Shown in pieces: positions 25,768-34,023 of a stretch of DNA of 64,000 nucleotides. Both the position numbers and the translations under genes were made by a program. Source of the DNA: Arcobacteraceae bacterium (GTDB lineage: Bacteria > Campylobacterota > Campylobacteria > Campylobacterales > Arcobacteraceae); NCBI GenBank assembly GCA_963676205.2, contig CAXXUS010000001.1:79725-143724 (forward strand). Reading direction: 5' to 3'. The notes under the pieces were generated by a model. It made no database searches, was not told the DNA's origin, and saw nothing but the letters and a program-made list of their open reading frames with translations. Position 1 is the stretch's first letter; each line of letters starts with the position of its first letter.

Positions 25768-26890
25768 TGTCGCTGTTTTAGGTGCAGGAGCTTCAGGGCT
25801 TTTTTTTAGCTCGCAAGTAAAGAGTAAAAATATCTGTATCATAGAATCAAACGGCAAAATCGGTGAGAAGATAAAGATTTCAGGCGGCGGACGCTGTAAT
25901 ATCACCAATAAAAAAGTAAGTGAAAATAACTATCTAGGCGATAGTGATTTTATAAAAAATACATTTAATACTTTTTCAAATAAGGACCTTGTGGCACACT
26001 TTAAAAACAACGATCTTAAACTATCTCTTGAAGATAAGATAGTAAAAGGGCAGTATTTTTTTAAAAGCTCACAAGTAGTTTTAGAGTTCTTAAAAAAGCA
26101 GATCACTCACGCAAAAATATTTTTTAATACCCAAGTTAAAGATGTGGAGTATAGCGAGCACTTTACGATTAAAACAAATAAAGGGCTGATAAAAGCAAAA
26201 AAACTAGTTGTGGCAAGCGGCGGGGAATCGTATAGAAGTATAGGGGCAAGTGATATTGGCTTTCAAATAGCACAAAAGTTTGGACACACCATTGCGCGAA
26301 CCTCCCCTGCTCTTGTAGGCTTTACTGTACAAAAAGAGCAGTTTTGGTTTAAAGCGCTTAGCGGTCTTTCGCTGACAATAAAGATAACCATAGATGATAA
26401 AAGCTTTTATCAAGATATGCTCTTTGCCCATAAAGGGTGCAGCGGTCCTGCCATTTTAAACGCTTCACTTTATTGGCAAAAAGGCTCACTTACAATAGAC
26501 TTTCTTCCAAACTTTGATCTTAGCAAACTTAACGGTAATGCACTACTATCTTCAAAGCTTCCCGCACCCAAACGTTTTATAAAAGCGTTTTTAAAATCAA
26601 TCAATTTAGAAGATAAGGCGATAAGCAAACTCTCAAAAGAAGAAAAAGAGAAATTGCAAATCATTAAAAACTATAGCTTTAGCCCTGCAGGTACTTTTGG
26701 ATATACAAAAGCGGAAGTTACAAAAGGGGGTGTTAACACATCCCAGATAGATCAAAATAGTTTTGAAAGTTTAAAACAAAAAGATCTTTATTTTATCGGT
26801 GAAGTTTTGGATGTAACGGGTGAGCTTGGGGGATATAACTTTCAATGGGCTTTTAGCTCTGCGTATGCTTGCGCAAACAATATAGATTGA
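25748..26890 (+). CDS. HI0933/BaiN-family NAD(FAD)-utilising flavoprotein
   Basis: VAVLGAGASGLF dinucleotide fold, ISGGGRCN, C-terminal GEVLDVTGELGGYNFQWAFSS. Confidence 0.85.
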   Translation: MNSKIYNVAVLGAGASGLFFSSQVKSKNICIIESNGKIGEKIKISGGGRCNITNKKVSENNYLGDSDFIKNTFNTFSNKDLVAHFKNNDLKLSLEDKIVKGQYFFKSSQVVLEFLKKQITHAKIFFNTQVKDVEYSEHFTIKTNKGLIKAKKLVVASGGESYRSIGASDIGFQIAQKFGHTIARTSPALVGFTVQKEQFWFKALSGLSLTIKITIDDKSFYQDMLFAHKGCSGPAILNASLYWQKGSLTIDFLPNFDLSKLNGNALLSSKLPAPKRFIKAFLKSINLEDKAISKLSKEEKEKLQIIKNYSFSPAGTFGYTKAEVTKGGVNTSQIDQNSFESLKQKDLYFIGEVLDVTGELGGYNFQWAFSSAYACANNID

Positions 26891-26915
26891 CTAAAAATAC
26901 AATATGTGCTAGAAT
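26887..26915 (+). promoter_or_regulatory. Candidate sigma70-type promoter for the toxin-antitoxin pair
   Basis: TTGACT (26887-26892), 17-nt spacer, extended -10 TGcTAGAAT (26907-26915), about 25 nt upstream of the antitoxin start. Sequence match only. Confidence 0.4.
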
Positions 26916-26939
26916 AAGATAAAAAATAAGGAGATAAGT

Positions 26940-27194
26940 ATGGTACAAAATATGTCATCACAAAAAGTAACTGTTACTATACCTTATGAACTAAAAGAGA
27001 AACTAAATAATTTAAAAGATGAACTTCACACTTCAGTTTCTGCGATATATAAAGAAGCATTAGAAAACTATTTAGAAAAAAAAGAGTTAGAAAAATGGCA
27101 AGATGGTGCAAACTTAGCTTCAAAAGATAAGAACTATTTAGAGTTTGTAAATGAACTAAATAGTGATCTTGGAGATGATATATATGAATATTAA
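26940..27194 (+). CDS. Ribbon-helix-helix (CopG/MazE-like) antitoxin
   Basis: 84 aa. KVTVTIPYELKEKLNNLKDEL is an RHH beta-strand/helix start. Overlaps the toxin gene by 11 nt. Confidence 0.65.
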   Translation: MVQNMSSQKVTVTIPYELKEKLNNLKDELHTSVSAIYKEALENYLEKKELEKWQDGANLASKDKNYLEFVNELNSDLGDDIYEY

Positions 27195-27543
27195 CCAAGG
27201 AGAGATTTGGGAAGTGGAGTTTTTTCCAAAAGTTGGAAGTGAGATCACTAAAAAAAGACCAGCAATCGTTATAAACCATGACCTTATAGGAAAACTACCT
27301 TTAAAAACCATTGTTCCTATTACAAACTGGTCAAACTCTTTTGAAAACTATCCTTGGATGTATAAATTAGAACAAAATGAATTAAATGGTTTATCAAAAA
27401 TATCAGGAGTTGACTGCTTTCAAATAAAAAACTTCTCTATTAATAGATTTAAAACCAAAATTGGTATAGTTAATGAAACTCAACTTCAAGAGATTCATAA
27501 TATTGTGATAAAAACATTAAATCCTAAATACAAATGTGTTTAA
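27184..27543 (+). CDS. MazF/PemK-family endoribonuclease toxin
   Basis: GEIWEVEFFPKVGSEITKKRPAIVINHD, PLKTIVPIT, DCFQIKNFSINRF. Start placed at ATG 27184 (MNINQGEIW). Confidence 0.85.
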   Translation: MNINQGEIWEVEFFPKVGSEITKKRPAIVINHDLIGKLPLKTIVPITNWSNSFENYPWMYKLEQNELNGLSKISGVDCFQIKNFSINRFKTKIGIVNETQLQEIHNIVIKTLNPKYKCV

Positions 27544-27716
27544 TCATCGCTATTATCTCTTTTGTATTTGCCTATAATTTTTATATAGACGCTAATATTG
27601 CTTCTGCAATTGTAAGTGGAGTGATAGGTCTTGGATTTGCTTTATTAATGGGTAGGAATATTTTGAAGACTAAAAGGGAAAGAGATATGAGTAAAGAAAC
27701 AACCTCTACAAAATAA
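27534..27716 (+). CDS. Small two-TM membrane protein (hypothetical)
   Basis: 60 aa. Two hydrophobic helices, then a basic tail (KTKRERD). Overlaps the toxin stop by 10 nt. No homology recognised. Confidence 0.35.
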   Translation: MCLIIAIISFVFAYNFYIDANIASAIVSGVIGLGFALLMGRNILKTKRERDMSKETTSTK

Positions 27717-27734
27717 AGATTAATCTTAATATAT

Positions 27735-28388
27735 TTAGAACTTTACAATTATTCCATAGTTAAAGGTAAATAGATTCTTCTTAAAAGCTTCACCATAGTC
27801 AGGATCATCATAAAAATATTTATAGGTAGGACCTGCATATAGCTCAAAAACATTACCAAAATGAATTGTAATTCCAAGACCTAAAAGTAAATTTAGATCA
27901 CTTCTAAATCTTAACTTTTTTAAACTTTCAGGTGTATGACTTGCATTTTTTCCATAATCCTGAGTATAATAACCATATCCCAGTTTTACAAATGGTCTAA
28001 GTCCATTTAAATATTCAGGTGATGCTTCTAAAGTTAGGATTAAGTCTGAACCGTATATGCTAAAACCTTCTTTGTTAACATATTCGTAATATCCTTCTCC
28101 ATCAATATATGTTTCATAATACGAAAGTTCAAGTTTACCATTTTTAAAATAATAGCCGACTCCTGCTGCTCATCCATAATATCCATAACTCGATGTATAA
28201 GATACATTTACAAAAAAACCTTGATTATTTATTCTTGAGTCATTAGATTTTCCTTTATAGGAATCACTAGAATCAAGAACTGTTGCAGTTGTCATATTAA
28301 ATTCAAAAAAATCTGCTATTGAATCACTACTTGCATATACTTTAAAATTAACAAATAAAATTAAAATAGAAAAAAATATGTTTTTAAT
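27735..28388 (-). pseudogene. Decayed outer-membrane beta-barrel protein gene
   Basis: My own minus-strand translation gives a signal peptide (IKNIFFSILILFVNFKVYA) and Tyr/Gly-rich alternating strands ending ...FTFNYGIIVKF*. The initiator position is ATT (AAGGA 6 nt upstream). An in-frame TGA lies at 28170-28172 (YYG*AAGVGYYF). Absent from the ORF track for these reasons. Confidence 0.65.
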
Positions 28389-28728
28389 TGTATATCCTTA
28401 AATATTATGAAGTAAGATTATATCTAAATAGCTGTCACAAATGCGTCACAAAATTGCCATTACAAAATAAAGATTGTGTTTGTAATCTAATTCGTGGATG
28501 AATGCCTTTCTTTTTATCCGTAAAAAGAAACAAAAACTCTTCCACCCGATAAAATGTAATCTCAAGCTTCCATAAAATATTTTCTGATGTCAAAAACTCA
28601 AAATAAAACCTTCATTTAGAAGCTTTTATTTTTCAGACAGTTTTCCATCTTTTCCGAAAATATTTTACTCCATCTTGGCATTTTAACAGGGTGGAATTTT
28701 TTCTTTGGTAGCTAGCTTCACCGTCAGG

Positions 28729-28750
28729 CAATCCACATTTGCAGAAGCTA
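28729..28750. repeat. Left copy of the imperfect inverted repeat flanking the IS110-family recombinase
   Basis: CAATCCACATTTGCAGAAGCTA versus the reverse complement of 30158-30177 (CAACCACATTTCGAAGCCTA): 19 matching positions with small indels. Confidence 0.4.
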
Positions 28751-29051
28751 AAAATTTGAGATATTTTTTACGTAACAAGCTGAGGACTCGTATAATATAA
28801 ATATTGAAAATATAGTAATATATTTTCATAGAGTTCATAAAGATAATATATCTGAGTTGAGGACAAAGCAACTAAAATAATTTTGGTTAGCTTGGCAGAC
28901 AGTTTGATAGTTATACTTTAAATTTGAGTAGCAACAAGAACAGTTTTAACTAGTTCGTATTTTACGAGTCTAAATTTAGTATAAATAAATTATCGAGTAG
29001 GATTTGATCCTACTCTAACGAACTCTTTATATTAAAACAAAGGTTCCAAGT

Positions 29052-30032
29052 ATGTATTCTATCGGATTAGATATTAGTAAATCAACTATAAATGTATATA
29101 TTCCAAAAAACGATTTAGATTTAGTTATTGATAATAGTTTAAAATCTATAAAATCTTTATATTCAAAGTTAAAGAAGTTATATCAAAAAGATATCGATAA
29201 ATTAGCATTTATATTTGAGCCAACTGCAAATTATTCTACTACATTAAGATATTTTTGTAGCGAAAATAGAATTAAATGCTTTATTGTAAACCCTAAACAG
29301 AGTTCTAACTTTTCTAAAGCATTAGGAGAGAGAAATAAAACAGATTTAACTGATGCTAGAGTATTATCTAAAATGGAATCTATAGCTCTAAAAGAGGATA
29401 TCAAAGTTCCCATTATCAATGTGCTTGTTGAAGAGTTAAATGAGTTAGTTTCTTATTATAGATTACTAACTAAACAAAAGCTTCAAAATAAAAATCATTT
29501 AGAAGCTTTATTAGCAAAGTTTGAATCTTCTATAGTGATTAAAGAGCTAAAAAAAGAGATTTTAAATTTAGAAAAAAAAGAAAAAATGATTATTAAAAAG
29601 ATAATCGATTTAATAAAAAAAGATGAAAACTTATATCAAGCTTTTAATAATATAAAATCAATTAAAGGTATAGGAGATTTATCTGCTATAGTCCTTTTAC
29701 ATCACTTTATAAAATATCCAAATGCAAATCAAAGGGAAATAATATCTTTAGCTGGCTTAGACCCAATATGTAAGGAATCGGGTACATCATTAAAGAAGAA
29801 AGCAAAGATATCAAAAGCAGGTTCTAAAATATGTAGATCAACTTTATTTATGGCTTCATTAGTATCAATACAGTTTAACGAAGAGATAAAACTATTTTAT
29901 ACAAGATTAAAAAACAATGGTAAACATACTACAGTGGCACAAATTGCAGTAATGAGAAAGTTAATTATAATCGCTCATTCTTTATACAAAAATAATCAAA
30001 CATATAATCCTTTAAAATATAAATCTAACTAA
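29052..30032 (+). CDS. IS110-family DEDD transposase/recombinase
   Basis: RuvC-like N-terminus (IGLDISKST, FIFEPTANYS, DLTDARVL). C-terminal Tnp module (IKGIGDLSAIVLL, SLAGLDP, ISKAGSKICRSTLFMASL). 326 aa. Confidence 0.9.
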   Translation: MYSIGLDISKSTINVYIPKNDLDLVIDNSLKSIKSLYSKLKKLYQKDIDKLAFIFEPTANYSTTLRYFCSENRIKCFIVNPKQSSNFSKALGERNKTDLTDARVLSKMESIALKEDIKVPIINVLVEELNELVSYYRLLTKQKLQNKNHLEALLAKFESSIVIKELKKEILNLEKKEKMIIKKIIDLIKKDENLYQAFNNIKSIKGIGDLSAIVLLHHFIKYPNANQREIISLAGLDPICKESGTSLKKKAKISKAGSKICRSTLFMASLVSIQFNEEIKLFYTRLKNNGKHTTVAQIAVMRKLIIIAHSLYKNNQTYNPLKYKSN

Positions 30033-30157
30033 GTGTTTTTTTACTATTTTTTAAGGTAGCAACTGTTTGAATGGATAAAGGTGCTAAATGCACCTTTAGG
30101 AATGAGTTCCGCAAGCAAGTAAAACAATATCGATAATTTTTAGGTACCTATCGTAGA

Positions 30158-30177
30158 TAGGCTTCGAAATGTGGTTG
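30158..30177. repeat. Right copy of the imperfect inverted repeat flanking the IS110-family recombinase
   Basis: TAGGCTTCGAAATGTGGTTG is the reverse-complement partner of 28729-28750. Confidence 0.4.
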
Positions 30178-30250
30178 TTTTTGGTTACTTTTTGTCAATA
30201 CAAAAGTAACATAAGCGAAAAGCTAAAAGCCTTTCAAAAAAAGAAAGAAA

Positions 30251-33211
30251 CTATTCCTCTTCCACCGCACTATAATGCAATTCAAGTCCTTTACTTGTAG
30301 TTACAAAACCGTTAATATTTAAACGCCCCTCATGCACCATCTTATGGTGTTTTTTACAAAGTGGGATAAGGTTGAATTTATGGTTTTGGTTAATATGCCC
30401 TATAAATCCTCTCTCATCGGCACTTTGCTGCTCTTTTATATGATGTACCTCATCCACGGGTGCCCCACATATTGCGCAAGTGCTCATATAAAGATCACGG
30501 TTGTATTTTGAGGTTTTTTTGTGCGTTAATCGCTCAACAGAACTGTAATCATCGGTGATACGTTTACGAATATCATTTGCAACGCGTAAAAACTCACTAT
30601 CCATATGCAAGGATTTTGCAAACTCTAAGCCGTAAATTGAACTACCGCTTCCGTATTTTAGTTTTCTATCAAAGATCAGTTTATCTTTCTCATCCTCATA
30701 CATTACACTTAAGTGCAAGCAGATAATATTTGTAAGTTTTTCTATCTCTTCAAGCTCGGGGAGCTGGTGTAGGTGTGTCGCAAAAAGGAAGATCGATTCA
30801 AGTTTTGCTAGTTTTAAAATAGCACTTGCAACAATACTTACTCCACTCATAGTCTCGGTTGAGTGACTGATCTCATCACCTAAAACAAGCGAGTTTTTTG
30901 TAGCACGGTTAAATATATTTTTTAGCTCCATCATCTCTACAGCGAACGATGAAAGCCCTTTTGCGATATTATCGCTTCCGCTGATTCTTGTAAATACTGC
31001 GTCAAAAATAGCAAAACGCATCGACTTTGCAGGTACGAAAAATCCAGCTTGAGCTAAGATCACTGCCATCCCTACAGATTTCATTAGTGAGCTTTTTCCA
31101 CTGCTGTTGATCCCATAAAGCAATACACCGTGCATATGGTTTTGAAGCAGATTTACAGGTCGTGCATTTTTAATGATCACATTATCTTTTTGCTCTTTTC
31201 CAGCAAGTCCTAGATCACCTAGAATAATATCGTTTGGTACATATATACCACCCTCTTCGTTTGATTCTATGATCGGGTGGCGCAGTTCTAAAACCTCTAT
31301 AAAGTTTTGATCATCTTTAGCTTTTACGATTTTAGGGCACACATAGTTGTATTTTTTTGCCGTTTTAATATTAGATACAGTTAGGTCAACCTCGGCGATA
31401 AAACTAACAAGTTCTTCTAAAAGAGAGGCGAATTTTTTCTCAAACTCTTTGACTTTCTCTTTAAATACAAGCTTATTAAGCTCTATTATCTTTTGCTGGT
31501 TTGCTACATATTTATCGCTGATATTCTCGATCAAAGTGTTTGTGATCTTTACGTTATTGGTCTGCACTTTTATATTAAAATCTTTAAACAAATACAGTTC
31601 ATCATCAATAATTAGGTGTGAAGCTTCAAGCTCTTTTTTTATTAGGTTGTAGCGGTTTTTAGTGATCCCTAAAAAGAACCCCTCTTTTTCTAGGCGGTTG
31701 ATACTTACAAAGTTTGTATCGCTTGTATTTAAAAACCCTAAGATATGTTCTCTAAACACCTCTAGCTTTTGTTTTAGTTCACTATTTTGGAAGTTAAGCT
31801 CATCGATTTGAAGATTTACGCCAGCACTTATCATATTATCTTCCACATCTTTTAACATATAGCGTCCACTCACACTTAGATCAAAAGTGGCATTGATATT
31901 ATCGATAAACTGCATTATATCACCCGAACTGCATGGCGGTGTTACAAACTTATAGTTCTCCATAAACGTAACGATCTCTTTAATACTTAAAAGTGAATCG
32001 TTAAGATAATTTAGCTCAAAAGGGTGCAGACGATTTAGTTTTATACGTCTTGTAAGGCGCTCTATATCATAGATATTTGCCAGCTCATTTTCTATAGGCG
32101 CGGTGTAATCATAAAGCTCTTTAGATAGGTTGTACCTACGCTGTAGCTCTTTGGCATCTTTGATAGGATGGGTTAAACGCTCTTTTAAAAGCCTCTTTCC
32201 CATAGCAGTTGAAGTATTTGTTAAAAGTCTTAAGAGTGATGGGTTATGGGTGGTCTCAATAATATTTAACTGCTCTAAGGCATTGTTTCCAAGGTAAACA
32301 TATTTGCTTACATCAAGTTTTACGGGGTGGCTTAGTTTTTGGATAATATTTGCATCATGCCCTATTACAAAATCTATTAAAATAGCTAAAGACTCAGAAG
32401 CTATCGGGTAGCGCTCTAGATCTAAATGCTCTATAGGGGTTAGAAGAGATTCAATATTAAATACGTTTTTAAATAGCTCATTTTGATACCCTATCTTAGC
32501 TCTAAAATTTGAGATATGAAAGGTTTTTTTTGAAAGCTCTAGATACTCAATGATCTCATTTTGGTTTATATTTTTATCACAAAATGTTACAACCACTTCC
32601 GAGGTTTTATGCATATTCATATAGTTAAACACTTCATCTAAAGCAAAGCTTGGATCCTCGCTTGTACCGTACACTTCGTTGATATAACATTTTCCCGTTG
32701 TTACATCTATTGCACTGTAACCCACTAAATAGTTGCCGTTTATTTGATCTATAGTTAAAGAGGTGATATTGTTCTCATCTTGATTTACCACAAAATCAAA
32801 GTTCGTCCCTGGGCTTATCACTGCATCTAAATAGCGGCTTACTTTTGGCGGTACACCTTTTTGTTTGATAATAGCTACAGTGTATTTTTGCTCATTTATA
32901 ATACGCGCTAAGTGTTTTTCAAAAGAGATCGCTGGAACACCTGCCATCATAGGATTCTCTTGGGAGTTTTCTAAAATAGTTTTATTTTTACGAGTAAGCT
33001 GAATATTTAAAAGCTCTGCTATCTCTTTAGCTTTACCTATCTGCTCCTCATCGTTATTTACCTCATACACTTCATAAAAAGTACCAAGCTCCATTAAAAC
33101 AACACTGTGTTTACCGTATTTGCTCTCAAAAAGTTTTTGAAGCTTAAAATAGGTGACCGTTAAAAGCTCTTTTTTATTCTCTAATAGTTCTGCTACCTCT
33201 TGTGCAAGCAT
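30251..33211 (-). CDS. MutS-family protein with C-terminal HNH endonuclease (MutS7-type)
   Basis: Mismatch-domain-like N-terminus (GTFYEVYE, MAGVPAISFEKHL). ABC ATPase (GINSSGKSSLMKSVG; LVLGDEISHSTET; ATH). C-terminal HNH (CAICGAPVDEVHHIKEQ...NLIPLCKKHHKMVHEG). 986 aa. Confidence 0.85.
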   Translation of the reverse strand: MLAQEVAELLENKKELLTVTYFKLQKLFESKYGKHSVVLMELGTFYEVYEVNNDEEQIGKAKEIAELLNIQLTRKNKTILENSQENPMMAGVPAISFEKHLARIINEQKYTVAIIKQKGVPPKVSRYLDAVISPGTNFDFVVNQDENNITSLTIDQINGNYLVGYSAIDVTTGKCYINEVYGTSEDPSFALDEVFNYMNMHKTSEVVVTFCDKNINQNEIIEYLELSKKTFHISNFRAKIGYQNELFKNVFNIESLLTPIEHLDLERYPIASESLAILIDFVIGHDANIIQKLSHPVKLDVSKYVYLGNNALEQLNIIETTHNPSLLRLLTNTSTAMGKRLLKERLTHPIKDAKELQRRYNLSKELYDYTAPIENELANIYDIERLTRRIKLNRLHPFELNYLNDSLLSIKEIVTFMENYKFVTPPCSSGDIMQFIDNINATFDLSVSGRYMLKDVEDNMISAGVNLQIDELNFQNSELKQKLEVFREHILGFLNTSDTNFVSINRLEKEGFFLGITKNRYNLIKKELEASHLIIDDELYLFKDFNIKVQTNNVKITNTLIENISDKYVANQQKIIELNKLVFKEKVKEFEKKFASLLEELVSFIAEVDLTVSNIKTAKKYNYVCPKIVKAKDDQNFIEVLELRHPIIESNEEGGIYVPNDIILGDLGLAGKEQKDNVIIKNARPVNLLQNHMHGVLLYGINSSGKSSLMKSVGMAVILAQAGFFVPAKSMRFAIFDAVFTRISGSDNIAKGLSSFAVEMMELKNIFNRATKNSLVLGDEISHSTETMSGVSIVASAILKLAKLESIFLFATHLHQLPELEEIEKLTNIICLHLSVMYEDEKDKLIFDRKLKYGSGSSIYGLEFAKSLHMDSEFLRVANDIRKRITDDYSSVERLTHKKTSKYNRDLYMSTCAICGAPVDEVHHIKEQQSADERGFIGHINQNHKFNLIPLCKKHHKMVHEGRLNINGFVTTSKGLELHYSAVEEE

Positions 33212-33630
33212 TATTTACGAACTCCAGTCCAATCTCTTATCAGATTACGCTCTTCTTTACTAAGGTTTGCTTCCTCGTGAAAATATATATATGAGCCTAA
33301 AGGCATAGCAGCATAAACGCTTCTATATATCCCTTTTAGTCTTTTTTGTTTATCCTCTTCACTATAGTTTTCCCAAGTTGAGAAGTTAAGCCAAGCACGT
33401 CCATGTTTTACATGTGAAGCTATACTCCACGAAAACGGTGCCACATAAGAGTACCAAGGCCATTTTACCTCATTTGAGTGGCAGTCATAGCACGCTTTTT
33501 TAAATATCCCCATCACCTGTTCATCAGCTTTTATCTCAAGCTCTTTAGGTGTAGTGGGATTTGTTTTATCTGTTTGTATAAACTGCATTAGTATAACAAC
33601 TGCAAAAATTATGATCAAAGCTCTTTTCAT
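33211..33630 (-). CDS. Haem-binding-domain (Haem_bd) protein, membrane anchored
   Basis: N-terminal TM/signal, then CYDCHSNEVKWPWYSYVAPFSWSIASHVKHGRAWLNFSTW. TAATG overlap with the mutS7-like start. Confidence 0.7.
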   Translation of the reverse strand: MKRALIIIFAVVILMQFIQTDKTNPTTPKELEIKADEQVMGIFKKACYDCHSNEVKWPWYSYVAPFSWSIASHVKHGRAWLNFSTWENYSEEDKQKRLKGIYRSVYAAMPLGSYIYFHEEANLSKEERNLIRDWTGVRK

Positions 33631-33642
33631 ATATCTATTCCC

Positions 33643-33960
33643 TTATGAAACCATTATCTCATACGGTCTTTTTAACTCTTGTATAAAAGCCGATATGGAT
33701 AGATTTCTTGATTTTCTAATAAACTCTTTACCGTCTAAAAAAACTAAAATAGTCGGTACGGCAAAGACATTGAACTCTGCACTGATATTTTGATTTAAAG
33801 CAGCATCGATATATATCTGCTCTATAAGTGGAAAGTTTTGATCTAGCGCATCTTTTATCTTTGGCTTTAAAGCCTCACAAACGCCGCAGTCTTGCCCGCT
33901 AAAATAGAGCATAACCCCGCTTTTGTTATTTATTGTCTCTTTTATCGTTTCTATAGTCAT
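33643..33960 (-). CDS. Thioredoxin-fold protein
   Basis: 105 aa. Redox motif CGVC in MLYFSGQDCGVCEALKP and the cis-Pro region (AVPTILVF). Confidence 0.75.
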   Translation of the reverse strand: MTIETIKETINNKSGVMLYFSGQDCGVCEALKPKIKDALDQNFPLIEQIYIDAALNQNISAEFNVFAVPTILVFLDGKEFIRKSRNLSISAFIQELKRPYEIMVS

Positions 33961-34023
33961 AGAGATATTGTATCAAAAAAATGTTTTGGAACTATTTAGT
34001 AATATTTTTGTATAATTTTTACC

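Follow-up and report, generated by a model that had tools for sequence, protein, structure and literature searches.

A MutS7-type MutS-HNH gene and its gene neighbourhood in an Arcobacteraceae bacterium

We examined a stretch of 64,000 nucleotides (nt) from the genome of an Arcobacteraceae bacterium (the window; GCA_963676205.2, contig CAXXUS010000001.1, positions 79,725 to 143,724), in which three closely spaced minus-strand open reading frames (ORFs) fill positions 30251-33960. The largest, here called mutS7 (30251..33211), encodes a protein of 986 amino acids (aa) that, from its ORF and Pfam matches, resembles a MutS mismatch sensor and ATPase with a C-terminal HNH nuclease. Upstream of it lie a gene for a 139-aa Haem_bd protein (PF14376; 33211..33630) and a gene for a 105-aa thioredoxin-fold protein (trx; 33643..33960). 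A preliminary description of this DNA had assigned the MutS-HNH protein to the MutS7 subfamily, and had asked whether its coupling to redox and haem genes and its position beside an insertion sequence (IS) and a toxin-antitoxin (TA) module point to canonical repair or to surveillance or defence.

All three ORFs listed in that description were found in the ORF list of the window, as were the one-base overlap and the 12-nt spacing it had claimed for the string. Read on the minus strand, the Haem_bd/mutS7 junction is ...CGT AAA TAATG CTT..., a 1-nt overlap (gap -1 nt) in which a single A ends the TAA of Haem_bd and begins the ATG of mutS7, and a GGAG lies ~10 nt 5' of the mutS7 start. The stop of trx is separated from the Haem_bd ATG by 12 nt on the same strand.

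Domain architecture and class of the MutS-HNH protein

A Pfam search with the 986-aa protein returned MutS_I (2.6e-12), MutS_III (1.3e-24), MutS_V (4.6e-44) and HNH_2 (23.0 bits, cut-off 21), all above the Pfam cut-offs. Domains I, III and V together with HNH are the set by which MutS7 is defined (PMC3166940). MutS domains II and IV were not detected by Pfam at threshold, as expected of MutS7; MutS_II gave a sub-threshold match (E 0.028, 15.2 bits).

Domain I occupies residues 33-139 (32795..33115, minus strand, as for all domains here) and carries the mismatch-binding motif G43-T-F45-Y-E47. Domain III/core-lever extends over residues 310-613 (31373..32284), with a MutS_III match that spans 304 residues on a 194-position profile, and encloses a beta-rich insert (residues ~495-557) at the position of clamp domain IV. 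The ABC ATPase of domain V, at residues 697-885 (30557..31123), contains the Walker A motif GINSSGKSS and the Walker B motif LVLGDE, and the HNH nuclease, at residues 912-964 (30320..30478), contains C912-x2-C915, H923-H924, N947, C952-x3-H956 and H960. We rejected the reading of GTFYE as a degenerate stand-in for the canonical GxFYE mismatch motif: it fits GxFYE exactly, with T at x, and F45 and E47 align to F36 and E38 of E. coli MutS.

Conservation was assessed in an alignment of 28 diverse full-length homologues, 32-79% identical to the window protein. G43 and F45 were invariant and E47 was at least 90% conserved, and N702, G705 and K706 of Walker A were invariant together with D779 and E780 of Walker B. 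The HNH/zinc residues C912, C915, H923, H924, N947, C952 and H956 were likewise invariant, with H960 at least 90% conserved; the same HNH residues were invariant in 31 C-termini, 20 of them from giant-virus copies. The MutS ABC ATPase and the complete C-terminal HNH that had been noticed from their motifs are thus borne out by the Pfam matches and by the conservation of their residues.

An AlphaFold 2 (AF2) model of the 986-aa protein had a predicted local distance difference test score (pLDDT) of 86.4 and a predicted template modelling score (pTM) of 0.78. It superposed on the whole chains of E. coli, Taq and human MutS (Foldseek E ~1e-48; TM by target 0.80-0.85; ~900 columns), with strands 502-557 in the region of clamp domain IV. 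This whole-chain superposition on MutS1 points to predicted structural counterparts of connector domain II (beta/alpha in the model; residues ~148-250, 32462..32770) and of domain IV (~495-557), both of which go unseen by Pfam. The literature describes MutS7 as having neither domain II nor domain IV; the AF2 model has folded counterparts of both. Between domain V and the HNH domain runs a linker modelled with low confidence (pLDDT <50 at 895-897). When the HNH domain was modelled in isolation, 10 of its 11 best Foldseek matches were HNH nucleases (among them IscB, TagI, McrA, Cas5-HNH, Cap5, Cas9 and T5 SciA), each with a weak E-value of 0.09-0.9. Searched by sequence against the PDB, the HNH tail gave one chance-level match only.

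The protein scored below the NCBIfam equivalog cut-offs for MutS1 (391.6 vs 480 for NF003810; 293.4 vs 641.7 for TIGR01070) and for MutS2 (121.5 vs 400 for TIGR01069). It resembles MutS1 of E. coli and Thermus aquaticus in its predicted fold over the whole chain, at ~20% identity, and in having Phe-x-Glu and the ABC ATPase. MutS1, however, works with MutL and MutH, neither of which is present in the window genome (MutL sought as PF01119), whereas the window protein has a fused HNH, and domains II and IV that have diverged beyond Pfam. MutS2 (MutS-Smr, e.g. of Helicobacter pylori) likewise joins a MutS-family ATPase to a nuclease at its C-terminus, but it has no domain I and carries Smr rather than HNH. 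The window protein has domain I and has HNH in place of Smr, and in the tree a great distance separates it from MutS2.

The tree of 74 rows was made by an IQ-TREE quick search, with octocoral sequences not included and with only two outgroups, both long branches: MutS1 of E. coli and the MutS2 encoded in the same genome. It placed the window protein in an Arcobacteraceae clade (support 100) within a Campylobacterales clade (95-100), nested in turn in a group with 16 giant-virus contigs; the two outgroups stand on the far side of a branch with support 99. The phylogeny thereby agrees with the earlier assignment to MutS7, separate from both MutS1 and MutS2. Taken with the domain architecture and the unvarying HNH residues, it supports the view that the 986-aa protein is a genuine, intact MutS7, with its HNH on a flexible linker.

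The protein is a routine member of a family described before, and its genus has itself been cited for MutS7: Arcobacter and Sulfurospirillum sequences root published MutS7 trees (PMC6163669). Relatives in Arcobacter, Aliarcobacter, Halarcobacter, Malaciobacter and Poseidonibacter share 77-79% full-length identity, a length of 984-988 aa and the same domains, and are annotated 'MutS-related protein' or 'DNA mismatch repair protein'. Nothing substantial distinguishes the window protein from these other Campylobacterota MutS7 proteins; the flanking IS110/MazEF cargo is particular to the window genome.

An exhaustive search of representative sequences gave 3726 clusters at E <1e-30; among the best 150, most matches were full-length, with 34-56% identity. 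MutS7 relatives known outside bacteria are those of giant viruses and mtMutS of octocoral mitochondria. Profile scanning of IMG/VR gave 581 viral stretches, including many giant-virus metagenome-assembled genomes with 31-37% identity over residues ~21-986. These giant-virus (Mimiviridae) copies share all the HNH residues and fall in a common clade with the window protein, but many of them differ in an extra tail of 55-60 aa after the HNH. The tail ends ...KIS..T..K(I/V)..G.Y and is absent from all Campylobacterales copies (L108, L109, L112, L119, L122, L127, L136, L170, L175). Two metagenomic MutS7 sequences that branch just outside Campylobacterales (L204:6265-9102, L205:6001-9003) are flanked by bacterial-type genes (T2SSF, DnaB_C, prepilin peptidase, DUF285), and MutS7 therefore occurs in other bacteria as well.

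Distribution of MutS7 and its proposed role in repair

To investigate the occurrence of MutS7, 301 sampled Campylobacterota genomes (G000-G300) were surveyed. MutS7 was present in 72 of the genomes and 29 of the 58 genera, so that its earlier characterization as a rare lineage does not apply to this phylum. Each positive genome held one full-length copy, with a second, partial match in three genomes, and no copy was found in families f2, f3, f6, f9 and f13. Across Arcobacteraceae genera MutS7 is 74-80% identical, compared with 39-56% for trx and 48-68% for Haem_bd. We read mutS7 as a housekeeping gene, present once per genome and passed on vertically, in Arcobacteraceae and in most other Campylobacterales outside Campylobacter and Helicobacter.

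Two genomes of another family (G075 and G165; family f11, genus g35; L093:4501-7452 and L094) have a MutS7 73% identical to that of the window and nested inside the Arcobacteraceae clade, whereas in other genera of their family it is only ~51% identical. This MutS7 is probably an inter-family replacement that arrived without the trx and Haem_bd neighbours.

The window genome (2.48 Mb, 99.7% complete) was checked for a canonical mutS or mutL elsewhere, as the preliminary description had suggested. It contains two MutS_V genes, the second encoding MutS2 (736 aa), which carries an Smr domain. MutL was found in only one of the 301 Campylobacterota genomes. With MutS2-Smr as the only other MutS_V protein, and with no MutL or MutH in the genome, MutS7 appears to be the sole candidate mismatch sensor with a domain I.

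By homology, a MutS-type dimer would scan the DNA and use Phe45-x-Glu47 in its domain I to recognize mispairs or small loops, and ATP binding in domain V would switch its conformation. No MutL or MutH would be recruited; in their place the tethered HNH of MutS7 itself would nick the DNA and so start excision. We consider it fairly probable that the gene is an intact MutS7, inherited in Arcobacteraceae as a housekeeping repair gene that uses such a self-nicking mechanism, that the upstream pair are not its partners, and that the downstream islet is separate from it.

MutS7 might instead act on recombination intermediates or damaged DNA, which its HNH would cut, rather than in post-replicative mismatch correction; examples would be heteroduplex rejection that limits homeologous recombination, and recognition of oxidative lesions. 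These bacteria are naturally recombinogenic, and the other MutS paralogue of the genome is MutS2-Smr, which in Helicobacter is an anti-recombination and oxidative-damage factor; mutS7 also follows a thioredoxin-like gene and lies near a thiol peroxidase gene. We nevertheless regard this role as unlikely. The protein has a complete MutS1-like fold with an invariant, mismatch-specific Phe-x-Glu, whereas MutS2 proteins have no domain I, and a depletion of poly-G runs in MutS7-positive genomes fits the correction of loops and mismatches.

This depletion was measured by counting, in each of the 301 genomes, windows made up of nine G or nine C in a row. The median count was 1 (interquartile range, IQR, 0-2) in the 72 MutS7-positive genomes and 40 (IQR 8-94) in the 229 MutS7-negative genomes (uncorrected Mann-Whitney p 2e-30, with kinship ignored). 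In the three families that hold both states, the values for MutS7-positive and MutS7-negative genomes were 0.5 vs 3.5, 1 vs 2 and 0 vs 7.5. Medians were 128 and 213 in the MutS7-negative families f2 and f6, respectively, and the window's own genome has no G or C run of nine or more. The contrast is suggestive, circumstantial support for a real repair role of MutS7.

Several points weigh against a housekeeping repair gene with unrelated neighbours. A few deep clades (f2, f3, f6) account for most of the poly-G contrast, which is confounded with host association or lifestyle, and some MutS7-negative groups (f9, f13 and part of f3) are also poor in such runs. To our knowledge, no strand-discrimination signal is known for MutS7. 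The searchable literature yielded no experiment, biochemical or genetic, on a MutS7 from bacteria, so that its binding of mismatches, its nicking and its part in avoiding mutations are all inferred. Finally, the Haem_bd/mutS7 junction lies within ~+/-5 nt in 45 of 48 relatives, which is closer than adjacency alone would require and might be a sign that co-expression is under selection.

For the window itself, the housekeeping repair reading is of little import, since the family has been described and the redox and defence ideas considered below do not hold. More broadly, no candidate mismatch sensor other than MutS7 is apparent in the MutL-less Campylobacterota, and the distribution of MutS7 anticorrelates with poly-G contingency tracts. 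It is a tentative possibility that MutS7 provides a working, MutL-independent mismatch and loop repair in free-living Campylobacterota, and that its absence from two large host-associated families, presumably Campylobacteraceae and Helicobacteraceae, permits their hypermutable poly-G/C contingency tracts. No paper tying MutS7 to poly-G/C tracts was found in the literature searched. Miller et al. (2007) reported that A. butzleri has no hypervariable G:C tracts and suspected functional mismatch repair, with the MutS7 gene unmentioned (PMC2147049); the link, if true, turns this old remark into a testable one-gene hypothesis. Arcobacteraceae are culturable, so that the idea of a self-contained nicking MutS can be tested there.

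The upstream trx and Haem_bd genes

The trx protein matches Pfam Thioredoxin (5e-10), has no signal sequence, and scores under every NCBIfam thioredoxin cut-off. Its CxxC was found in 48 of 48 orthologues, as CSVC in most and as CGVC in the window. The Haem_bd protein (Pfam 3.7e-41) has a hydrophobic N-terminal anchor (hydropathy 3.07 over residues 4-18) and a CYDCH haem-c motif, with CxxCH present in 51 of 52 orthologues. Given this hydrophobic N-terminus and the CxxCH, it is probably a periplasmic or extracytoplasmic haem-c protein, located apart from the DNA.

Gene order was compared in the Arcobacteraceae clade, where 73 of 79 MutS7 loci could be scored. Haem_bd lies directly upstream of mutS7 in 49 of the 73, the window included, with ~4 changes on the MutS7 tree. 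At 20 mutS7 loci from eight other Campylobacterales families, neither trx nor Haem_bd was found near mutS7. The upstream pairing, whose presence in relatives had been proposed as a check, is therefore kept within Arcobacteraceae and not beyond. Within Arcobacteraceae, one clade of ~20 species keeps MutS7 at 74-78% identity without trx and Haem_bd; outside, the neighbours of mutS7 vary by family.

Haem_bd was present in 55 of the 301 genomes, and outside Arcobacteraceae it occurs at loci far from mutS7, with neither trx nor mutS7 beside it at any of 15 such loci. It occurs in genomes that have no MutS7, and MutS7 occurs in genomes that have no Haem_bd. In relatives the string extends further upstream, with leuA or a gene for a 679-aa membrane protein overlapping the trx start.

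One Arcobacteraceae genome (G049; C1:167836-174210) has no MutS7 at all and keeps trx and Haem_bd on one strand, ~660 nt apart; no mutS7 remnant was found in the 3 kb downstream of the pair.

The association with trx and Haem_bd does not accompany MutS7 wherever it is found. Since Haem_bd and MutS7 are independent of each other elsewhere, we conclude from the gene order in these genomes that the trio is an inherited, lineage-specific string of Arcobacteraceae, and not a module intrinsic to MutS7. The three genes are probably co-transcribed in this family, and their co-expression is likely; a functional coupling between them we consider improbable.

Such a coupling would make trx, Haem_bd and mutS7 a redox-linked unit in Arcobacteraceae, in which the trx-like protein keeps the Cys-rich zinc site of the HNH reduced, or in which the operon links repair capacity to the oxidative or respiratory state. 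The recurrence of the trio in 49 of 73 loci with so few changes on the tree speaks for this, as do the conserved CxxC and CxxCH and the overlapping or near-abutting junction of the 45 relatives, kept although trx is so much less conserved than MutS7. We still think a redox unit very unlikely. The 20 mutS7 loci of other families have neither neighbour, the 15 Haem_bd loci outside the family have neither trx nor mutS7 nearby, and Haem_bd and MutS7 each occur in genomes without the other. Even within the family, the ~20-species clade holds MutS7 without these neighbours, and the genome G049 retains trx and Haem_bd after the loss of mutS7. The signal anchor and haem-c motif would put Haem_bd in the periplasm, and the string runs on upstream into unrelated genes (leuA, the membrane protein gene), as is typical of compact operons. 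The redox speculation raised by the gene coupling is not borne out.

Signals for transcription of the string were sought around its ends. An extended -10-like element, TGATACAAT, at 33967..33975 on the minus strand, follows a T-run and ends 6 nt before the trx ATG. It was recognized by eye; the consensus promoter scan requires a -35 hexamer and did not report it. TGATACAAT is a possible promoter of a leaderless or near-leaderless trx-Haem_bd-mutS7 transcript. The trx ATG has no Shine-Dalgarno sequence (minus strand, 33961-33975), and with this start only 6 nt past TGATACAAT, translation of trx, which opens the string, may take place on an mRNA with little or no leader. At the other end, a terminator-like hairpin (30216..30236, minus strand; 9 pairs, 3 of them G-C) lies 15 nt past the mutS7 stop; it comes from a scan for sigma-70 promoters and terminators whose yield was at background frequency (20 sites vs 15.4 +/- 4.1 expected). 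A shared regulatory motif was sought 5' of trx, but in most relatives that DNA is the 3' end of another coding gene and offers no intergenic region common to them for comparison.

The downstream islet

An IS110 gene (29052-30032, plus strand) is convergent with mutS7 and lies 219 nt beyond its stop, and a MazEF pair (26940-27543) lies 2.7 kb from mutS7. The TA module is thus not immediately beside mutS7, as had been described. In the closest relative (90% identity, on a Tara contig), the same backbone of fliD, PAS-EAL, Tpx, kinase, trx, Haem_bd and mutS7 is found, and Abi_alpha, 7TMR-DISM GGDEF, FMN_red and MNT/HepT genes occupy the space up to Mem_trans and an HI0933-like gene (L104:10964-17160). 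The same interval in the window (26890-30250) holds MazEF, a broken outer-membrane gene and IS110. This interval, between the 3' end of mutS7 and the HI0933-like gene, is a cargo hotspot or variable islet. With the same backbone and different cargo in the relative, mutS7 borders the islet and is not a member of it, and we rejected its placement in a mobile or defence islet. A duplicated 3' end of mutS7 was sought in the islet; the only match was of 23 nt at 83% identity (28524-28546 vs 30244-30266), which we regard as chance.

The surveillance or defence role raised earlier would make MutS-HNH a nuclease of the adjacent mobile and TA islet. Besides IS110 and MazEF, the Abi_alpha gene directly after mutS7 in the nearest relative speaks for it. 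We hold this role to be extremely improbable: mutS7 is a backbone gene whose flanking cargo changes between relatives, and it is single-copy, tracks the family phylogeny and is far better conserved than its neighbours. None of the three proteins of the string had a match among the 5027 models of PADLOC-DB 2.0 at E 0.01 or better. Base composition differs as well, the GC content of mutS7 being 0.35 vs 0.265 in the IS region.

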